UHGV virus genome: UHGV-0208829
Source of the DNA: a virus
DNA: 62,541 nt
Strand: one strand, 5' to 3'
Part shown: positions 1 to 54,772 of the stretch, one piece after another
Layout: every line of letters begins with the position of its first letter
Numbering within the stretch: position 1 is the stretch's first letter
The notes under the pieces: model-generated
Seen by the model: only the letters and a program-made list of their open reading frames with translations
Told to the model about the DNA's origin: nothing
The model's database searches: none
Translations under genes and position numbers: made by a program

Positions 1-605
1 TTGGGTGTGTTTGGGTTTTGAGTGAGTTAAAAATTTAAGATCGATCCGAGAGACTTAGTGTCTCTCGAAGAGTATTAAAAAAATTTAAAAGATCAAAAAA
101 CCAAAGCTAGAGAACTACTCAACCTGAATCTTCAGTGTGTGAAGATTCAGTAAGTTGATCAATCCAGCTGATCCGCTAGTACGCGAAGCGTGAATGTTTT
201 TTTGATCGTCGCGGCGGCCGGTCCGCCGACCCGAGGGCGGGGTGGAACTGGTCGAGGGTAATGCCCCTCAGACGCTCTCAATCGAGCTGTAACGAGTTAA
301 ACGGGGTTCGGGTACCCAAGTGTACCCCTTGAGAAGATTTTTGCGTCAAAATGCGTTTTAGAGCGTTTTACGGTGGGGTGGGTTTTCGTCCCACCCAGGG
401 ATAGGGGTTGGCGTGACAGCTCGAACGACAAAATCGCGGTTTCATGGAGTTGAGTGAAAATAAATTCAAAACCCACAACCAAAACACCCTCAAATTCTTC
501 GTAGGAAGCTCTCTGACGAGATAAACGTGGGTAAGGGGTACGAACGTACCACCTGGAAAGAAAAATGCGTTAGAATCGTTCTCATCGCGTTTTTTGATTT
601 TGGGC
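1..605. other. non-coding region rich in short GC hairpins and palindromes
   Basis: No ORF of 60 aa or more on plus strand; the two small minus ORFs overlap and lack ATG/SD; multiple inverted repeats (e.g. gagagac..gtctctc, gggtggg..cccaccc, ggtacg..cgtacc). Confidence 0.4.
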
Positions 606-642
606 AAAAAAAAATAAAAACGGGGGAGACTTCGGTCTCCCC
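606..642 (-). terminator. intrinsic terminator for gene 653..1777
   Basis: 8-bp stem ggggagac/gtctcccc (623-642) with ttcg loop; A-run 606-620 on plus gives U-tract on minus strand. Confidence 0.6.
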
Positions 643-652
643 AGAATATTTT

Positions 653-1777
653 TTACAGAGTCGTCAGTTCTTTTGACGGATAGTACAGTTTCACATCGAC
701 CAAACTGTAACCGGTGGCGTAGAACACCTGATTTCCGACCGAAGCAATAAACCCTTCAGGGTCGATAACGTCAACCGAGAAATCGGAATCGAATAGCCAG
801 GTTTCTTGTTCCCCTTCCCGTTCGAAAACGGCAGCGTAACGCCCGTATTCTGGGCCTCGGCGGAAACGAAACAGCGTTAATCCTGTCTCACGTTCTAAGC
901 CATAAATCACCCCATTTTCCTCGTAGATTTCAGCACGATTGCAGCGTGTAACCGTCAGCAACGCAGGCCGTTGTGTCGGGATTGTTTTAAACGGTGAAGG
1001 CCCATCGTATGTCGTTGAAACCCAATCACCGAGACTGTCTAACGCCAGTGCTCGATACGCAATAGGTGACTTGTAGTTACACAGCCTGTTGCCCTCGGTG
1101 TACATCGTGTATTCGATGCGTAACGTCGTACCGATGATGTCGTTCAAACTCAGTTTGTAGTGCGCTAACTGGGCTTGTATACGACGGGACAAAATTGTAC
1201 ACAGGAAAGTGTGACCTTCTGTAGAACGACACACCACACCGTAGTCGGTGACTGCCAGTAACGTGGCATCCGTTTTACGGACGGGTTCCAGGCGAAACAC
1301 CTCATTTTCAGTTTCTACGAGGAACTGTGAAACCGCTTGGTTTCTGGATTTAGCTTTAATCGTGTCGAAGACGTCTCCTGCTTTTACGATTAACGGCTCT
1401 ACTACGTTTACCTGAAATGGTAGCGGTTTCGTTGGGTATTGTCCCAACGTTGTAATTGTTACTGAGTTGAGTTCTGGGTCCGATGCGTCAGGATCACCAG
1501 ACAACCAGTACGTTAACCATTTCGACAGGGTTTGTGGAATAACGCGTGTGGTGTAAAACAGAATTTCGCCATGTAAACCTGCCTCTGCCAGTTCGCGTGC
1601 AAGAAACGAGTTGACCGCATCGTAGGTACCGTTGCGCAAAATGTCCATACCGCCGACACGAACCAAATCACAAATTACGCCGTGTGGAAGAACCCACATT
1701 TTGACGTTTTGATTTCGGTCGATGGTACCTTCGCGCAGCATTCTGTGCCAAACGGGTTTACGTAAGTAATTTCTCAT
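653..1777 (-). CDS. hypothetical protein (374 aa)
   Basis: ATG start with AGGAG 8 nt upstream; terminator downstream. Confidence 0.6.
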   Translation of the reverse strand: MRNYLRKPVWHRMLREGTIDRNQNVKMWVLPHGVICDLVRVGGMDILRNGTYDAVNSFLARELAEAGLHGEILFYTTRVIPQTLSKWLTYWLSGDPDASDPELNSVTITTLGQYPTKPLPFQVNVVEPLIVKAGDVFDTIKAKSRNQAVSQFLVETENEVFRLEPVRKTDATLLAVTDYGVVCRSTEGHTFLCTILSRRIQAQLAHYKLSLNDIIGTTLRIEYTMYTEGNRLCNYKSPIAYRALALDSLGDWVSTTYDGPSPFKTIPTQRPALLTVTRCNRAEIYEENGVIYGLERETGLTLFRFRRGPEYGRYAAVFEREGEQETWLFDSDFSVDVIDPEGFIASVGNQVFYATGYSLVDVKLYYPSKELTTL

Positions 1778-3282: not shown

Positions 3283-3519
3283 TCAATGGGGCCCTGACAT
3301 TACCACGAGGTGTATAGAGTAGACCATATTTAGCGCATAGGTAGCTGACGAACCTGCTACCATCAGGCCAAATACTGCAAATGCCTGTACATACCGTGTT
3401 TTTCGTAGTGGGAAACCTTGCGAACGTCCGTATTGTTTTATCGCTTGGTAACTCTCGCGGATCATTTTATACGTCGCTATCCACGAAAAGAACACAAGTA
3501 AATAGTAAATTGGAGCCAT
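3283..3519 (-). CDS. small membrane protein (78 aa, two hydrophobic segments)
   Basis: Track start 3522 is GTG; ATG at 3519 overlaps terminase TGA stop (TGATG) with GAGGA upstream. Confidence 0.45.
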   Translation of the reverse strand: MAPIYYLLVFFSWIATYKMIRESYQAIKQYGRSQGFPLRKTRYVQAFAVFGLMVAGSSATYALNMVYSIHLVVMSGPH

Positions 3520-5627
3520 CACTTCATCCTCTGGCGTTGGATAAGCTCTCTCAAGCTTTCCATTGACGCCACGTTTTGTGTATCAGTGTTAAGTTGAGCA
3601 ATGAGGGACTGGAGACGGTTACGAGCAGCCATTGCTTGAACCGGGTCTAATAACCCGTTTGTGGTTCGCACAAGACGCTCAATTTCCCCCATCAGTTCCT
3701 GCTGTCGCGCCTCCTCCTCGAGTTGTAATTCCTCATCCACCCCTTCACGATTTTCGACTAAATTACGATTGCGCATCATCAATCGACTGTTGTTGATTTC
3801 ATAATGCCCCAGGTTATTCCCAAGCAGCAATAACCACATCGCAAGTAACCAAGAAATCACGAGGTCGTCATGACCTGAAGCTTTGTGGTCAATACGACCA
3901 TTTTTCTCCACGAGGTTAAGTATCTGGTCGATGAGTTCTCCGCAACGGAGTTTATCCGCGGATAAGCGCAACGCCGTGGTGAATACCTCACCGTACAGTT
4001 TACGACGTTTTTCCTGGTCGGTTGAGAAACCGATATATTTACGGAATTTATTCCAGAACTTCTCAGCGTTACCAATAGGCCCACGGTGATACTCTTTGTA
4101 GAGATCGTCCGTACGTGAGTAGTCCTGAGTGATTCTCACAAATAAACGACGATGTAAGTCCGTGACACGAGACTGTAACTGCAGGATAATTGCATCAGCC
4201 ACAGACGAGCCAGTAGACCGCCGTTCCAGGATTAGTACCGTGTTAGGATATCGCACCATAAAATCCGCTAAATGAATCGCGAAAGAGATAACGTTAGATT
4301 CGTTAACGGTTAATTTACCTGCATACTCTGCGGTCACAGAGTTAACAATAGACATGGCGATCGCGTCTCGACCCACAGCCTCAGAGGTATCCAACCCGAT
4401 GACGTGTCGGTCTTTGAGCTTCGTCATCATCTCCTCTTCGGTGTAGTACCAGTCGGTAACGTAGTTTTGTGGTGAAATATCTTTAAACACAGCACGCATA
4501 CGGGAAGCATTCATACGATCTGCATCTTCCGCTGAGAACGGCTTGTTCAGACCACCGGTCGTCCATTCACCCCCGAAGTCACGACGGATCTGGTCAGGAG
4601 TACCTTTGGCGTTCGCAATCATTGCCGCTAACTGCTCATCACTGGTACCGAGCTGACGGTGGTTGTACTTCACGTAGAACATGATACGTGGGACTTCTGC
4701 CGTGGAGTTAGAACGGATGATGTCAATGAGCTGTTTACGGGTTGGAATGTCGATATAGCGCTCATCCCACATAATCCCTGACGTCATCAGCTCGTACATG
4801 TACTTGCCTTCTTCCGTCGCTAAGTCACCCGGGGTTGTTGCGAATACGTTACCGTAAGGAACACCTTCCGCTTCGTTAATACGACGTGCAGCTGTACCGG
4901 ATGCCAGCGCTGCCGGTAGAATGTGGTGTACGTTTTTGGTAAAGGGTCCTTCGTCCGAGAACAGACGACCAGCGGTAAGTCCACGACCGATACCGTTAGC
5001 CGATTCTGGGTCGTTTTGGCCGATGCCCGTAATCAGTTTGTTACCTTGAGCTAAACACGCAAAAGTTTCGCGGTTATCTGGATCGTCTGGATGTGCTGGC
5101 CACAAGTACGACGGTAGACCGTTACGTAGTTGCTTAAGTTTGTTAATGGTTTCTTCACGCAGTGCCGGACCTTTTGTGATAAGAATCGTACGAGAGTTTT
5201 CCAGAAACCGAATTAACCACAACAGTAATCCGCTCATCCCGACGGTTTTACCGTGCTGACGGAGGAATTCGACGGCGGCGTCGATGTTGTTGAAGAAAAT
5301 CCAATACATCGAAAAGTTACCACGGTCGATACGGAACGGAGACCCGTATTTCATACCGTCCGCAGGTACCCTGACGCACTCTCGAAACCAGTACCAAGGG
5401 TTTTCAGCACACTCGATGGCGATGTACGCTTTCTGTTCGTCCGTTAGGTTTTCGTCAAAAGGATCGACTCCTTGCAGCAAAGGGTTATGTAAGGCGAGAT
5501 GAATATAATAGTGCTTTACACCCAGCTTTTTTAGGATATTTGCAAACTTGATAAACGATTTGTTTGTGGTTTTATCGTCAACAATAGCGCCTGGATAATA
5601 ACGCCAGTCCGATTCACGTAGTATCAT
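3519..5627 (-). CDS. terminase large subunit
   Basis: 702 aa; deviant Walker A (LRQHGKTVGMS) N-terminal; C-terminal nuclease-like motifs (IGLDTSEAVGRD, KASGHDDLVISWLLAMW); GAGGAG 6 nt upstream of ATG. Confidence 0.65.
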   Translation of the reverse strand: MILRESDWRYYPGAIVDDKTTNKSFIKFANILKKLGVKHYYIHLALHNPLLQGVDPFDENLTDEQKAYIAIECAENPWYWFRECVRVPADGMKYGSPFRIDRGNFSMYWIFFNNIDAAVEFLRQHGKTVGMSGLLLWLIRFLENSRTILITKGPALREETINKLKQLRNGLPSYLWPAHPDDPDNRETFACLAQGNKLITGIGQNDPESANGIGRGLTAGRLFSDEGPFTKNVHHILPAALASGTAARRINEAEGVPYGNVFATTPGDLATEEGKYMYELMTSGIMWDERYIDIPTRKQLIDIIRSNSTAEVPRIMFYVKYNHRQLGTSDEQLAAMIANAKGTPDQIRRDFGGEWTTGGLNKPFSAEDADRMNASRMRAVFKDISPQNYVTDWYYTEEEMMTKLKDRHVIGLDTSEAVGRDAIAMSIVNSVTAEYAGKLTVNESNVISFAIHLADFMVRYPNTVLILERRSTGSSVADAIILQLQSRVTDLHRRLFVRITQDYSRTDDLYKEYHRGPIGNAEKFWNKFRKYIGFSTDQEKRRKLYGEVFTTALRLSADKLRCGELIDQILNLVEKNGRIDHKASGHDDLVISWLLAMWLLLLGNNLGHYEINNSRLMMRNRNLVENREGVDEELQLEEEARQQELMGEIERLVRTTNGLLDPVQAMAARNRLQSLIAQLNTDTQNVASMESLRELIQRQRMK

Positions 5628-52861: not shown

Positions 52862-53761
52862 TTATTTCCCACGATAAAATCCAGAAATGTAACTCGGCGC
52901 TATCCATCGCCATTCGCGCCAGCGCATTTCTGACATCTTACCACACCATACACGCTTCCAATGCGCACGACGGATATGTGCGGCGCAATAAATCGCCAAA
53001 CAAACCTCGTGTCCTTCCTTGCGTTGCTGCTCTATATCTTCCCATTGTAGCGGACTTACATCTAAAACGACCGCTTCACTACGTGGGCGAATTTCTGTAT
53101 CAGGAACATAACGAATGGACCTTCCACGAAATTCTTTCTTCTCACGTTCAGTTCGTTTAATTCGCGATGAAAGATATAACCCGATGTAGACCGCGTCGAG
53201 TAGTCGTTGATTCTCCTTAACCGAAGTAAGGAGCGGCTTTAACTCCACGAAATCATCATTACTTTTATCGATCGTGTAAATCTCAAACTCCATGTATACC
53301 GACTCGTCATGTTCTTCGCATGACATCACAAAGAGAACTTCTTCACCTTCGTAAAGACGTCTTCCGATAAATAACGTGATTGGACTTTCGTCGAGATTTA
53401 CAGTAACCGAGAAAGTAAATGAAGGGATGGTTTCTATCCAGAAGTACGGGATATTTTTTAGTCTCTCAGTTTTTGCTAAGAGCGCCATCAGTTCTTCATC
53501 CGAGATGATTTCAACAGCAGCGTATTGCCATCCTAGTCCCAGGGACTGCTTAATCAGTCTGGGGATCTGTTCGGTAACGCCATACTCACGATAGGTCGGA
53601 TCTTTAACTGGCATAAACGTTACGGGTATTTGACGTTTATGCTCGTTAATGAACCGAATAAAGCGACACTGATCTAATCCGTGAATTGTTTGGTGTGCCT
53701 TTTCTATTTGTTCGCTCATGCGTCTTAGCGCTTTCCCGTAAAGTCTATTATTCGTTGTCAT
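52862..53761 (-). CDS. hypothetical protein, tandem paralog B (299 aa)
   Basis: Track start 53917 overlaps upstream gene; ATG at 53761 has AGGAG 8 nt upstream; C-terminal AAHIRRAHWKRVW...WIAPSYISGFY. Confidence 0.5.
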   Translation of the reverse strand: MTTNNRLYGKALRRMSEQIEKAHQTIHGLDQCRFIRFINEHKRQIPVTFMPVKDPTYREYGVTEQIPRLIKQSLGLGWQYAAVEIISDEELMALLAKTERLKNIPYFWIETIPSFTFSVTVNLDESPITLFIGRRLYEGEEVLFVMSCEEHDESVYMEFEIYTIDKSNDDFVELKPLLTSVKENQRLLDAVYIGLYLSSRIKRTEREKKEFRGRSIRYVPDTEIRPRSEAVVLDVSPLQWEDIEQQRKEGHEVCLAIYCAAHIRRAHWKRVWCGKMSEMRWREWRWIAPSYISGFYRGK

Positions 53762-53786
53762 TTTAATACTCCTAAACACTTTTAGC

Positions 53787-54713
53787 TTAATTGTGGGGTA
53801 CGTAGCCACGGACAAATGTAGGTGGAATCCAACAAAGTTTTCTCTTTCTTTCACCATTTCTAGGGCCGACCCAATATCTGCGCCAGTGAGCGCGACGGAT
53901 GTGGGCAGCCTTAGCATGTTTGATACCCTGCATGGTTTTCAAGTCAGTGTTAAACCCTTTTAGATAATTCACTTGTCCTGGCGTGATATCTATCTTAACA
54001 TCGCGTTCACGAGGTTTAACGTCGTAACTAATACTACCGTTCTTTTTGATTTCCTTGAACTTAATATCATTAAAAGACTCCCTGTAATTAGGCGGGATTA
54101 GCGTACACAGAAATATCATCGAAGTGGCGGCTTTGGCCAGAGATAACCATAGCATCTTTTCTTGTTCGTTCTCCACACCGTCGGCATAGTCGATTTCAAC
54201 AAGCCCGTTTCCAACACTACATATCTCTAACGAGCAGGTGGCGATTGTGGTAACGCCTTCTGTTAACCCGTAATCAGTATTTGTAGCAATTATAATAAAC
54301 CTTCTCTTCCCGTTTTTTCGATAGCCGAGAAAGAAAGTCTCATCCTCTTTACCTACGTCGATTGCTACAGTCCATGTGGGTATAAAGTCCAACCATTCTT
54401 CAGGGAATTTACTGGGCATCTCAGTCTCGAAAACAAGTTCTCTAAGTGCTTGGTTGGATATTAAGGAAGCACCACCGTATAGCCATCCAATTGCCAATGT
54501 TTGAGCGTGAAGGGAACGGGGATCTTTGAGACCTAACTCAGCGTCGTAAGGTATAAAGGCATTGGTTAAATGGTTACGATTCTTTTTTATCCATTTCGAG
54601 ACAGGATTTTCCTTTATTCGGTTTTCTTCCATGACATTTTCAAGATGCTGAGACCCCATTTGTCTAAGGCAGTCTTTAATACCTTTTACTTTTTTACTTT
54701 TGTACAAATACAT
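53787..54713 (-). CDS. hypothetical protein, tandem paralog A (308 aa)
   Basis: ATG start; C-terminal AAHIRRAHWRRYW...WIPPTFVRGY shared with paralog B. Confidence 0.5.
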   Translation of the reverse strand: MYLYKSKKVKGIKDCLRQMGSQHLENVMEENRIKENPVSKWIKKNRNHLTNAFIPYDAELGLKDPRSLHAQTLAIGWLYGGASLISNQALRELVFETEMPSKFPEEWLDFIPTWTVAIDVGKEDETFFLGYRKNGKRRFIIIATNTDYGLTEGVTTIATCSLEICSVGNGLVEIDYADGVENEQEKMLWLSLAKAATSMIFLCTLIPPNYRESFNDIKFKEIKKNGSISYDVKPRERDVKIDITPGQVNYLKGFNTDLKTMQGIKHAKAAHIRRAHWRRYWVGPRNGERKRKLCWIPPTFVRGYVPHN

Positions 54714-54748
54714 GGTTTATTCTCCTAAAATGGTTAAAAATAAAGTAA

Positions 54749-54766
54749 CCCTAGCCGAAGCTAGGG
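54749..54766 (-). terminator. intrinsic terminator for gene 54773..55261
   Basis: Stem ccctagc/gctaggg, loop cgaa, minus U-tract. Confidence 0.6.
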
Positions 54767-54772
54767 TGTCTA

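Follow-up and report, generated by a model that had tools for sequence, protein, structure and literature searches.

We analysed the gene-free left end, positions 1-652, of a 62,541-nt stretch of viral DNA (UHGV virus genome UHGV-0208829; hereafter "the window", meaning the whole stretch). The window comes from a jumbo phage whose relatives include Salmonella phage SPN3US and Erwinia phages phiEaH2, Stratton, and Asesino; nucleotide identity to them is ~75% in coding regions. Comparison with relatives revealed that positions 1-652 are the right arm of a ~1.7-kb non-coding, single-copy module conserved in SPN3US-like (Chimalliviridae-type) jumbo phages. The module is real, conserved, and undescribed before, and no description of it was found in the literature searched; its kind (an origin-like or pac-like cis element) is known, and its composition is new. 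The reading we prefer, and hold tentatively, is that the module is a cis-acting DNA element, the right arm being most probably a flank of the phage replication origin.

The nearest kin of the window are metagenomic contigs from IMG/VR, L005 (98.5% identical) and L018 (94.4% identical). Contigs L094 and L095 represent a sister sub-lineage, in which a neighbouring protein is 89% identical.

Positions 1-652 form the longest non-coding stretch of the window. A preliminary description had ended this stretch at 605; its non-coding nature was upheld, and the true end was moved to 652, since the stop codon of the adjoining 374-aa gene occupies 653-655. The listing of open reading frames (ORFs) agreed with that description in giving no ORF of at least 60 aa on the plus strand of 1-605 and only two overlapping, non-ATG ORFs of this size on the minus strand, both starting with TTG (297-482, 61 aa, and 368-607, 79 aa). 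The short inverted repeats that had caught attention are indeed well above shuffle expectation: seven perfect hairpins with a stem of at least 6 bp were observed versus 1.2 ± 1.2 in 500 dinucleotide shuffles, and this number was matched by none of 188 equal-sized tiles of the window. Folding z-scores were -4.9 (DNA, 1-260), -5.7 (RNA, plus strand), and -8.2 (RNA, minus strand). The GC-rich block quoted earlier was located at 207-245. ARAGORN returned no tRNA or tmRNA in the window, in line with the lack of a tRNA-like T-loop noted before, and in the relatives it returned only tRNAs lying farther to the left of the module. The covariance-model scan that had been suggested matched no family: there were no matches at Rfam gathering thresholds in the window or in the modules of relatives, and permissive Rfam scans of the window and relatives gave chance-level matches only.

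The features of the right arm and its flank are listed below.

1-15: contig-start bases unmatched in relatives (BLAST and MAFFT homology with L005, L018, and L094 starts at ~13-16)
14-42: AT-rich palindrome, counterpart of a TTTTAAAAA-N-TTTTTAAA element conserved in every lineage; syntenic AT palindromes in 12 lineages
47-67: hairpin A, CGAGAGAC-TTAGT-GTCTCTCG, with an 8-bp stem
91-94: GATC site inside a ~16-19-nt segment lacking in the sister lineage L094
124-150: hairpin B, CTGAATCTTC-AGTGTGT-GAAGATTCAG; the stem covaries fully between genera
157-173: two GATC sites (157 and 170) in TTGATCAATCCAGCTGATCC, counterpart of a conserved A.AACGATCCAG island
181-191, plus strand: mini-hairpin C, ACGC-GAA-GCGT, with GCGAAGC at 183-189
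200-245: core with the highest conservation, TTTTGATCGTCGCGGCGG (GATC site at 204), and after it the GC-rich block
273-372: distal islands CGCTCTCAATCG (273-284), TAAACGGGGT (298-307), and TTTTAGAGCGTTTTACG (356-372)
310-327: hairpin GGGTAC-CCAAGT-GTACCC, island ACCCAAGTGTAC
376-396: lineage-specific hairpin, GGGTGGG-TTTTCGT-CCCACCC
458-500: further island, AAAATAAATTC...CCCTCAAATTCTTC, common to Seoulvirus
506-527 and 561-578: further islands, GAAGCTCTCTGACGAGATAAAC and AAAAATGCGTTAGAATCG
537-550: palindrome, GGTACGAACGTACC
603-654, minus strand: intrinsic terminator of the 374-aa gene, consisting of an A-run, the hairpin GGGGAGAC-TTCG-GTCTCCCC (623-642), and a T-run
653-1777, minus strand: conserved 374-aa gene of phrog_8136, a PHROG without known function; a class-1 promoter-like motif (see below) of its own lies at ~1823

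Architecture of the module in SPN3US-like phages

Contigs L005 and L094 extend leftward, and place window position 1 in the middle of the ~1.7-kb ORF-free module; the region is thus cut by the window edge and continues for at least 1 kb to the left in relatives. At the cut itself, bases 1 to ~12-15 (TTGGGTGTGTTTGGG) match no relative, and the relatives read ...CTTGAGATCAGATTT/GGTTT there. A possible explanation is an assembly-end artefact or a lineage-specific difference. Bases 1-15 pair with 471-493 in a single-sequence fold.

The module was found in ~60 GenBank phages, almost always without annotation, with the same order of parts in five lineages. It is present in Seoulvirus (SPN3US, MET_P1_082_240, SPAsTU, and pEa_SNUABM_29), Erskinevirus (phiEaH2, Stratton, and Asesino), Machinavirus (Huxley, Caitlin, and pEa_SNUABM_4), Wellingtonvirus (Kwan and pEa_SNUABM_11), and the window's own metagenomic lineage. 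Comparison with related phages, which the preliminary description had recommended, uncovered an ordered architecture conserved across genera. In the orientation of the window, the parts are:

Part 1: left arm, 450-850 nt, with invariant islands and variable hairpins
Part 2: GATCTCGTAATAAGGATCACGCGCG
Part 3: 130-230-bp block of ~96% A+T with two palindromes whose arms covary (AATATCTAAAGATATT, AATACCTAAAGGTATT, ATCCCTACGGGAT)
Part 4: alternating purine/pyrimidine GC palindrome, e.g. GTGTGCGCGTACGCGCGTATAA
Part 5: right arm, window 1-652

The ~96% A+T block adjoins window position 1 on the left, as seen in L005, L094, MET_P1_082_240, phiEaH2, and others, and lies outside the window itself. Its length varies between sister lineages, from ~130 nt in L005 (~8110-7990) to ~230 nt in L094 (~4990-4790; minus strand in both cases). 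The block is probably a hotspot of assembly breaks.

Within the right arm, the AT palindrome is followed by hairpin A, hairpin B, the GATCC island, mini-hairpin C, the core TTGATCGTCGCGGCGG with the GC-rich block, the islands (in the order CGCTCTCAATCG, ACCCAAGTGTAC, TAGAGCGTTTT, AAAATAAATTC...CCCTCAAATTC), and the terminator. The AT palindrome overlaps a GATCGATC pair at 39-46, which provides GATC sites. The positions of this palindrome and of hairpin A are kept in other genera with unrelated stem sequences. The loop of hairpin B, AGTGTGT, is common to the window and Seoulvirus, and GATC sites 157 and 170 are retained in L094 although the intervening bases differ. Within 1-660, only the core at 200-245 was matched in Erskineviruses by BLAST; it is present exactly in L005, L018, phiEaH2, Asesino, and Stratton, occurs once in the window, and starts, as an invariant TGATCG followed by GC-rich sequence, 12 nt after hairpin C. 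The GC-rich block contains a further hairpin at 212-228 (CGGCGG-CCGGT-CCGCCG). The distal islands at 273-372, also single-copy in the window, are common to Seoulvirus, Erskinevirus, Machinavirus, and L094. At 376-396, L094 has another hairpin (CCGGTT...AACCGG), and three changes in L018 preserve pairing of the window's hairpin only as G.U on the plus strand.

The right boundary is formed by the terminator, which on the minus strand reads GGGGAGAC-NNNN-GTCTCCCC followed by TTTTTATTTTTTTTT, and whose position is kept in all lineages. The minus-strand T-run is conserved in all lineages and the plus-strand T-run is not; in the window's lineage, the terminator appears bidirectional. In Seoulvirus, Erskinevirus, and Machinavirus, the module is separated from the 374-aa gene by one or two additional small genes.

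Constraint, covariation, and coding potential

The proximal part of the right arm is strongly constrained. Compared to L018, positions 16-232 are 96.8% identical, and the third codon positions of four neighbouring genes are 79-91% identical. Compared to L094, identity is 86.5% at positions 100-210 and 50-65% at third codon positions. Positions 246-605 are ~62% identical to L094 overall, with discrete conserved islands.

Covariation was evaluated in an alignment of seven sequences from three genera. In hairpins B and C, all 77 cells were paired, 7 of the 11 pairs were changed on both sides, and none was changed on one side only, while slid controls showed 22-38% pairing. For hairpin B, five of seven counted helix pairs were changed on both sides with 100% of cells paired, and in L094 the closing pair is further altered from C-G to T-A. 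Judged from this alignment, the covariation shows that the hairpin structures are under selection. None of the 77 cells is a G.U or G.T pair, compared to ~17% G.U in the neighbouring left-arm RNA. Counterparts of hairpin C in other lineages are CAC-GAA-GTG, CAC-GTA-GTG, GCGCAAGC, and GCGCTAGC. On the plus strand, the loops are of the type G-N-A or G-N-N-A (GAA, GTA, GCAA, and GCTA) closed by C.G, and so obey the GCGNAGC/GCGNNAGC rule of DNA mini-hairpins; SNUABM4 (CCGC-AAA-GCGG) is the exception. The lack of G.U pairs in hairpins B and C and the mini-hairpin loops favour a role at the level of DNA, without proving it.

Some loops are flipped between close relatives: that of hairpin A (TTAGT/ACTAA) is reverse-complemented in L005, and that of the terminator (TTCG/CGAA) in L005 and L018. 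The flips are small inversions across inverted repeats, and such events are known to arise where inverted repeats pair.

A protein-coding gene in this region was rejected in view of a frameshift, stop codons, and the codon-position pattern of substitutions. The ORF at 368-607 (minus strand) is frameshifted in L005, which is 98.5% identical, and is interrupted by two in-frame stops in L018; an excess of substitutions at third codon positions was seen in none of the small ORFs of the region. That one or more small proteins are nevertheless encoded here is highly improbable. Annotators of three relatives have called 69-95-aa minus-strand ORFs over the conserved core, and a 40-aa TTG ORF at 159-281 (minus strand) is open in the window, L005, and L018. 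Yet the annotated ORFs vary among relatives in start, length, and extent, nothing is annotated at the core in phiEaH2 and the Seoulviruses, the larger ORFs are broken in L005 and L018, substitutions in ORF 159-281 fall mostly in the second codon position (2, 6, and 1 by position), and hairpins and a GC palindrome occupy the conserved part. The "hypothetical proteins" in question, Asesino gp287 (L002, 1172-1381), Stratton gp286 (L003, 1164-1451), and Huxley gp277 (L021, 1448-1648), run across hairpin C or the GC-rich core and overlap covarying hairpins. Small ORFs annotated over the module in several GenBank records are probably spurious gene calls.

It is also very improbable, if slightly less so, that the region has no specific function and is a spacer holding a terminator and decaying remnants of lost genes or the scar of a mobile element. 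Positions 246-605 do evolve approximately neutrally among sub-lineages (L094 is 62% identical there and 50-65% identical at third codon positions), the extra small genes of Seoulvirus, Erskinevirus, and Machinavirus speak of fluid gene content, and the Derbicusviruses lack the module. However, conservation of the proximal 200 nt greatly exceeds that of neutral sites, and genera with flanking proteins of only 43-62% identity still have the islands in order and the covarying hairpins. For positions 16-245, covariation and constraint in the compared sequences already largely refute a spacer.

The 374-aa protein next to the module has no Pfam match. The "putative DNA ligase" label that it carries in the records of Proteus phage 7 and MET_P1_082_240 is unsupported by this search and by its PHROG of unknown function. 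Neighbouring genes likewise had no Pfam match and matched only PHROGs without known function. Elsewhere in the window, a second apparent large gap (53918-54772) was rejected as non-coding, since it holds a 308-aa ORF overlapping its neighbour. The two adjacent minus-strand ORFs (52862-53917, 351 aa, and 53787-54713, 308 aa) overlap by 131 nt, have a common C-terminal motif, AHIRRAHW.R.W.G, and look like tandem paralogues; the 308-aa ORF had no nucleotide-level match in the phage collection.

Promoter-like motifs, the RNA-like left arm, and the GATC cluster

Two recurrent promoter-like motifs were derived from the intergenic regions of MET_P1_082_240. Class 1, ATAGATATTATCT, lies ~35-45 nt upstream of start codons and has exact copies in the window at 1823, 47989, and 57112, all on the minus strand. 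Class 2, CAGATATATATTACCTAGGTGAG, is present six times in MET_P1_082_240 and absent from the window; it is similar to the early-promoter core of phiKZ, TATATTAC (PMC7598289). With up to two mismatches allowed, neither class was matched in window 1-700 on either strand, and in relatives matches were at composition level only, inside the AT block. The islands and core motifs of the right arm are single-copy, which, together with the absence of recurrent promoters, fits a unique site rather than a reiterated signal. A reiterated promoter or operator was rejected as a candidate on the same grounds, and GGTTAAAAA turned out not to be a genome-wide motif.

In the syntenic gap of the Derbicusviruses CR5 and Phobos (L039 and L040, respectively, both ~4700-4790, minus strand), a class-2 early-type promoter points leftward. 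The same gap has a conserved hairpin with a T-run on the opposite strand, beside the gene terminator; the hairpin and T-run may mark a small convergent transcript.

The left arm, which lies outside the window, is an ORF-free segment of 450-850 nt (L005, minus strand, ~8950-8130; MET_P1_082_240, L023, 1995-2880; phiEaH2, L001, 2990-3850). It combines the invariant islands CCCCTCTCGTCT-TTCCGAGCCGCCAAGA, TTCGACGCAACG, AGTGTTAG, and TCGAAAAAG with covarying hairpins. The minus strand of this arm is in the sense of the HslV-like gene and tRNAs that lie farther downstream; on it, compensatory changes were seen in 15 of the 35 predicted pairs, G.U makes up ~17% of cells, one G.U being invariant, and GNRA tetraloops occur. 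The left arm matched no Rfam family, and looks like a large undescribed structured RNA or leader. In Kwan (L026, ~692-1201), a ~600-nt insertion with an annotated HNH endonuclease, gp291, interrupts the left-arm segment, which suggests a homing endonuclease in a structured RNA gene.

The six GATC sites at 39-207 are the densest such cluster in the 62.5 kb of the window, and L005 has 13 GATC sites in ~490 nt; several positions are kept between genera despite diverged surroundings. In the complete 243-kb genome of MET_P1_082_240, the module contains both the most AT-rich 100 nt (0.96, with the next best at 0.75) and the highest density of GATC sites (nine in 500 nt; lambda 0.99, P ~1e-6 per window of the scan). 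The second-densest cluster lies within the portal coding sequence. These phages encode a D12/Dam-family N6-adenine methyltransferase (PF02086, E = 4e-54), with homologues in all four genera named above and in the window's own lineage. Genome-wide, MET_P1_082_240 has ~2.0 GATC sites per kb, about half of the base-composition expectation, despite its own Dam-family methylase. Nearly all of its genes are on one strand.

Possible roles of the module

The preliminary description had left a choice between a non-coding RNA, a replication or packaging site, and a regulatory hub. The region proved to be non-coding, structured, and constrained; a known RNA family, a tRNA-like element, and, in 1-652, the phage's own recurrent promoter motifs were not found. 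The evidence leans to a replication or packaging site, given a cis-acting DNA element that is single-copy, contains a GATC cluster, and adjoins a unique block rich in A+T.

Among these, we consider it possible, and put it with somewhat more reserve than the general statement about the right arm, that SPN3US-like nucleus-forming jumbo phages start their lytic replication at the module. Such an origin would combine a unique A+T unwinding block bounded by Z-DNA-prone GC palindromes, flanking single-strand hairpins with a mini-hairpin as priming signal, and the GATC cluster, which the phage Dam would read; left-arm transcription would possibly activate it. In the preferred reading of the right arm as an origin flank, the A+T block bounded by GC palindromes would be the easiest site of the genome to unwind. 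Once it is opened, the adjoining DNA would become single-stranded and fold into hairpins A, B, and C. By analogy with primase-dependent phage origins, hairpin C and the TGATCG/GC-rich core may act as a priming or loading signal. The GATC sites of the module would be methylated by the phage Dam-family methylase, and firing may be coupled to their methylation state. The terminator of the 374-aa gene would bar read-through transcription from the element. The structured RNA of the left arm would be transcribed away from the AT block, so the origin may be transcription-coupled, like T4 oriF/oriG or T7. As for the features of a theta origin, an AT-rich unwinding element is present in the block left of the window, and a GATC cluster together with an available Dam is present, Caitlin and SNUABM4 being exceptions. 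As in G4/ssiA-type signals, the mini-hairpin motif is situated within a hairpin-rich non-coding segment. The literature searched, including a 2026 jumbo-phage review, yielded no origin or packaging-initiation site for SPN3US-like or Chimalliviridae phages; the role is therefore vacant.

Several observations weigh against an origin. The Derbicusviruses CR5 and Phobos have the flanking genes in common with the other phages and lack the module at the syntenic site. Cumulative GC skew in MET_P1_082_240 does not mark the module; the skew is uninformative here, since it tracks the one-strand orientation of genes. No iteron array or convincing initiator-binding repeats were found, the repeats seen being a ~10-nt periodicity in the AT block and a TGGTTAAAAAGTG..CA 20-mer present two to three times in Erskineviruses. 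Downstream of the core, the lineages disagree in G-run and GC-skew asymmetry, so that an R-loop-type signature is not general, and GCGNAGC occurs at chance frequency genome-wide. The Caitlin/SNUABM4 branch has only three to four GATC sites in the module and still encodes Dam. GATC density is thus not indispensable, and a predicted co-loss of Dam and GATC sites did not hold, Caitlin having few sites and a retained Dam. The terminator hairpins, which are bona fide RNA, are likewise without G.T pairs, and Watson-Crick-only stems are therefore not proof of a DNA-level role. G.T strand asymmetry was discarded as a pointer to the transcribed strand for the same reason and because it showed no bias (107 versus 121). 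Finally, T4-like and phiKZ-like phages may depend largely on recombination-dependent replication.

Known systems provide partial parallels; the features of E. coli oriC, P1 oriR, T4 oriF/oriG, the T7 primary origin, P1 pac, and herpes simplex virus (HSV) oriS/oriL are general background. Like oriC and oriR, the module is single-copy, has a unique AT-rich block beside a dense, positionally conserved GATC cluster, and has Dam available, here encoded by the phage. Unlike them, it has no recognised DnaA boxes or iteron arrays and no sequence homology; its AT block is larger and more extreme (~96%, 130-230 bp), is bounded by GC palindromes, and is flanked by covarying hairpins. Host SeqA and DnaA would presumably be kept out of the phage nucleus. 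As at T4 oriF/oriG and the T7 primary origin, promoter-like sequences lie by an AT-rich unwinding element, where the structured transcript of the left arm emerges; unlike those origins, the module has no mapped promoter or consistent G-rich strand bias, is far larger, and contains multiple hairpins and a GATC cluster. With HSV oriS/oriL it shares an A+T centre with dyad symmetry, GC-rich inverted flanks, and hairpins after unwinding, an analogy of layout only, as scale and initiator proteins differ and there is no homology. The GCGNAGC/GCGNNAGC mini-hairpin DNA is frequent at phage replication-initiation sites, such as those of G4, St-1, and alpha3, and at RSF1010 ssiA (2026 review, PMC13037366). 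In the complementary-strand origins of G4, St-1, and alpha3 and in ssiA, as in the module, a mini-hairpin stands among larger hairpins in non-coding DNA; in the module, the loop class is kept and the stem covaries. G4 and ssiA differ in using single-stranded DNA templates with host DnaG or plasmid RepB', whereas the module belongs to a ~225-245-kb double-stranded genome, and priming there is putative. Hairpin C also has the shape of an N4 hairpin promoter (5-7-bp stem and 3-nt purine-rich loop, used by the single-subunit virion RNA polymerase, vRNAP). N4 promoters are listed among the contexts of mini-hairpins (PMC13037366), and the phages studied here use multisubunit RNA polymerases (PMC7598289).

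A competing view, conceivable and in our opinion rather doubtful, is that of a transcribed regulatory region: divergent promoters would lie in the AT block, the right arm, as a mirror image of the left, would give rise to a long leader or a structured non-coding RNA, and Dam methylation of the GATC sites would modulate the promoters. Since the minus strand of the left arm clearly resembles RNA, a promoter is required in or close to the AT block, and the palindromes of this block agree with the class-1 core TAGATATTAT in 10 of 12 positions, in either orientation. RNA folding is far above shuffles on both strands, the L018 changes in 376-396 pair only as plus-strand G.U, the terminator looks bidirectional in this lineage, and phiKZ is reported to express non-coding RNAs (PMC13282480). 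Yet 1-652 has no exact or near copy of either promoter class and no Rfam family match, Seoulvirus and Erskinevirus do not retain the plus-strand T-run that follows the terminator, and hairpins B and C lack the G.U pairs (0/77 cells) that make up ~17% of the adjacent bona fide RNA. An RNA function also leaves unexplained the positionally conserved GATC cluster and a 96% A+T block that differs from every other promoter region of the genome.

A further candidate is the pac site of a headful phage: in P1 pac, clusters of Dam sites flank the first terminase cut, and phage Dam controls cleavage. We regard this as unlikely here. As in P1, two groups of GATC sites lie on either side of a central block, the phage encodes Dam, and the gene of the large terminase is ~3 kb away (3519-5627). 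Three independent metagenomic contigs (the window, that of L018, and that of L095) end at most ~80 nt from the right edge of the AT block, and several independently assembled GenBank records open within the module, at differing positions. Contigs L005 and L094, however, pass through without a break, and 130-230 bp of 96% A+T with palindromes is an obvious breakpoint for assembly or coverage. Position 1 of the BYU records was set by family alignment (PMC6256631), and the ends of GenBank records were accordingly discounted as physical termini. These phages are regarded as T4-like headful packagers (PMC5694885), and packaging from a nucleus containing only phage DNA should need little sequence discrimination. 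The GATC contexts of the module are heterogeneous (GGATCA, AGATCC, CGATCC, TGATCG, and others) and do not have a single hexamer in common, unlike TGATCA/G of P1, the central part is a long A+T block, and a pac function would leave the covarying hairpins without a reason.

If the origin reading is true, this would be the first origin defined for SPN3US-like nucleus-forming jumbo phages. The module, single-copy and deeply conserved, is a deletable and clonable target for finding where DNA synthesis starts inside the phage nucleus, and opens the question of whether phage Dam is used for timing and not only against restriction. It also bears on the design of origin-containing vectors and minimal genomes for these phages, and probably accounts for the frequent assembly breaks at this place in their genomes.

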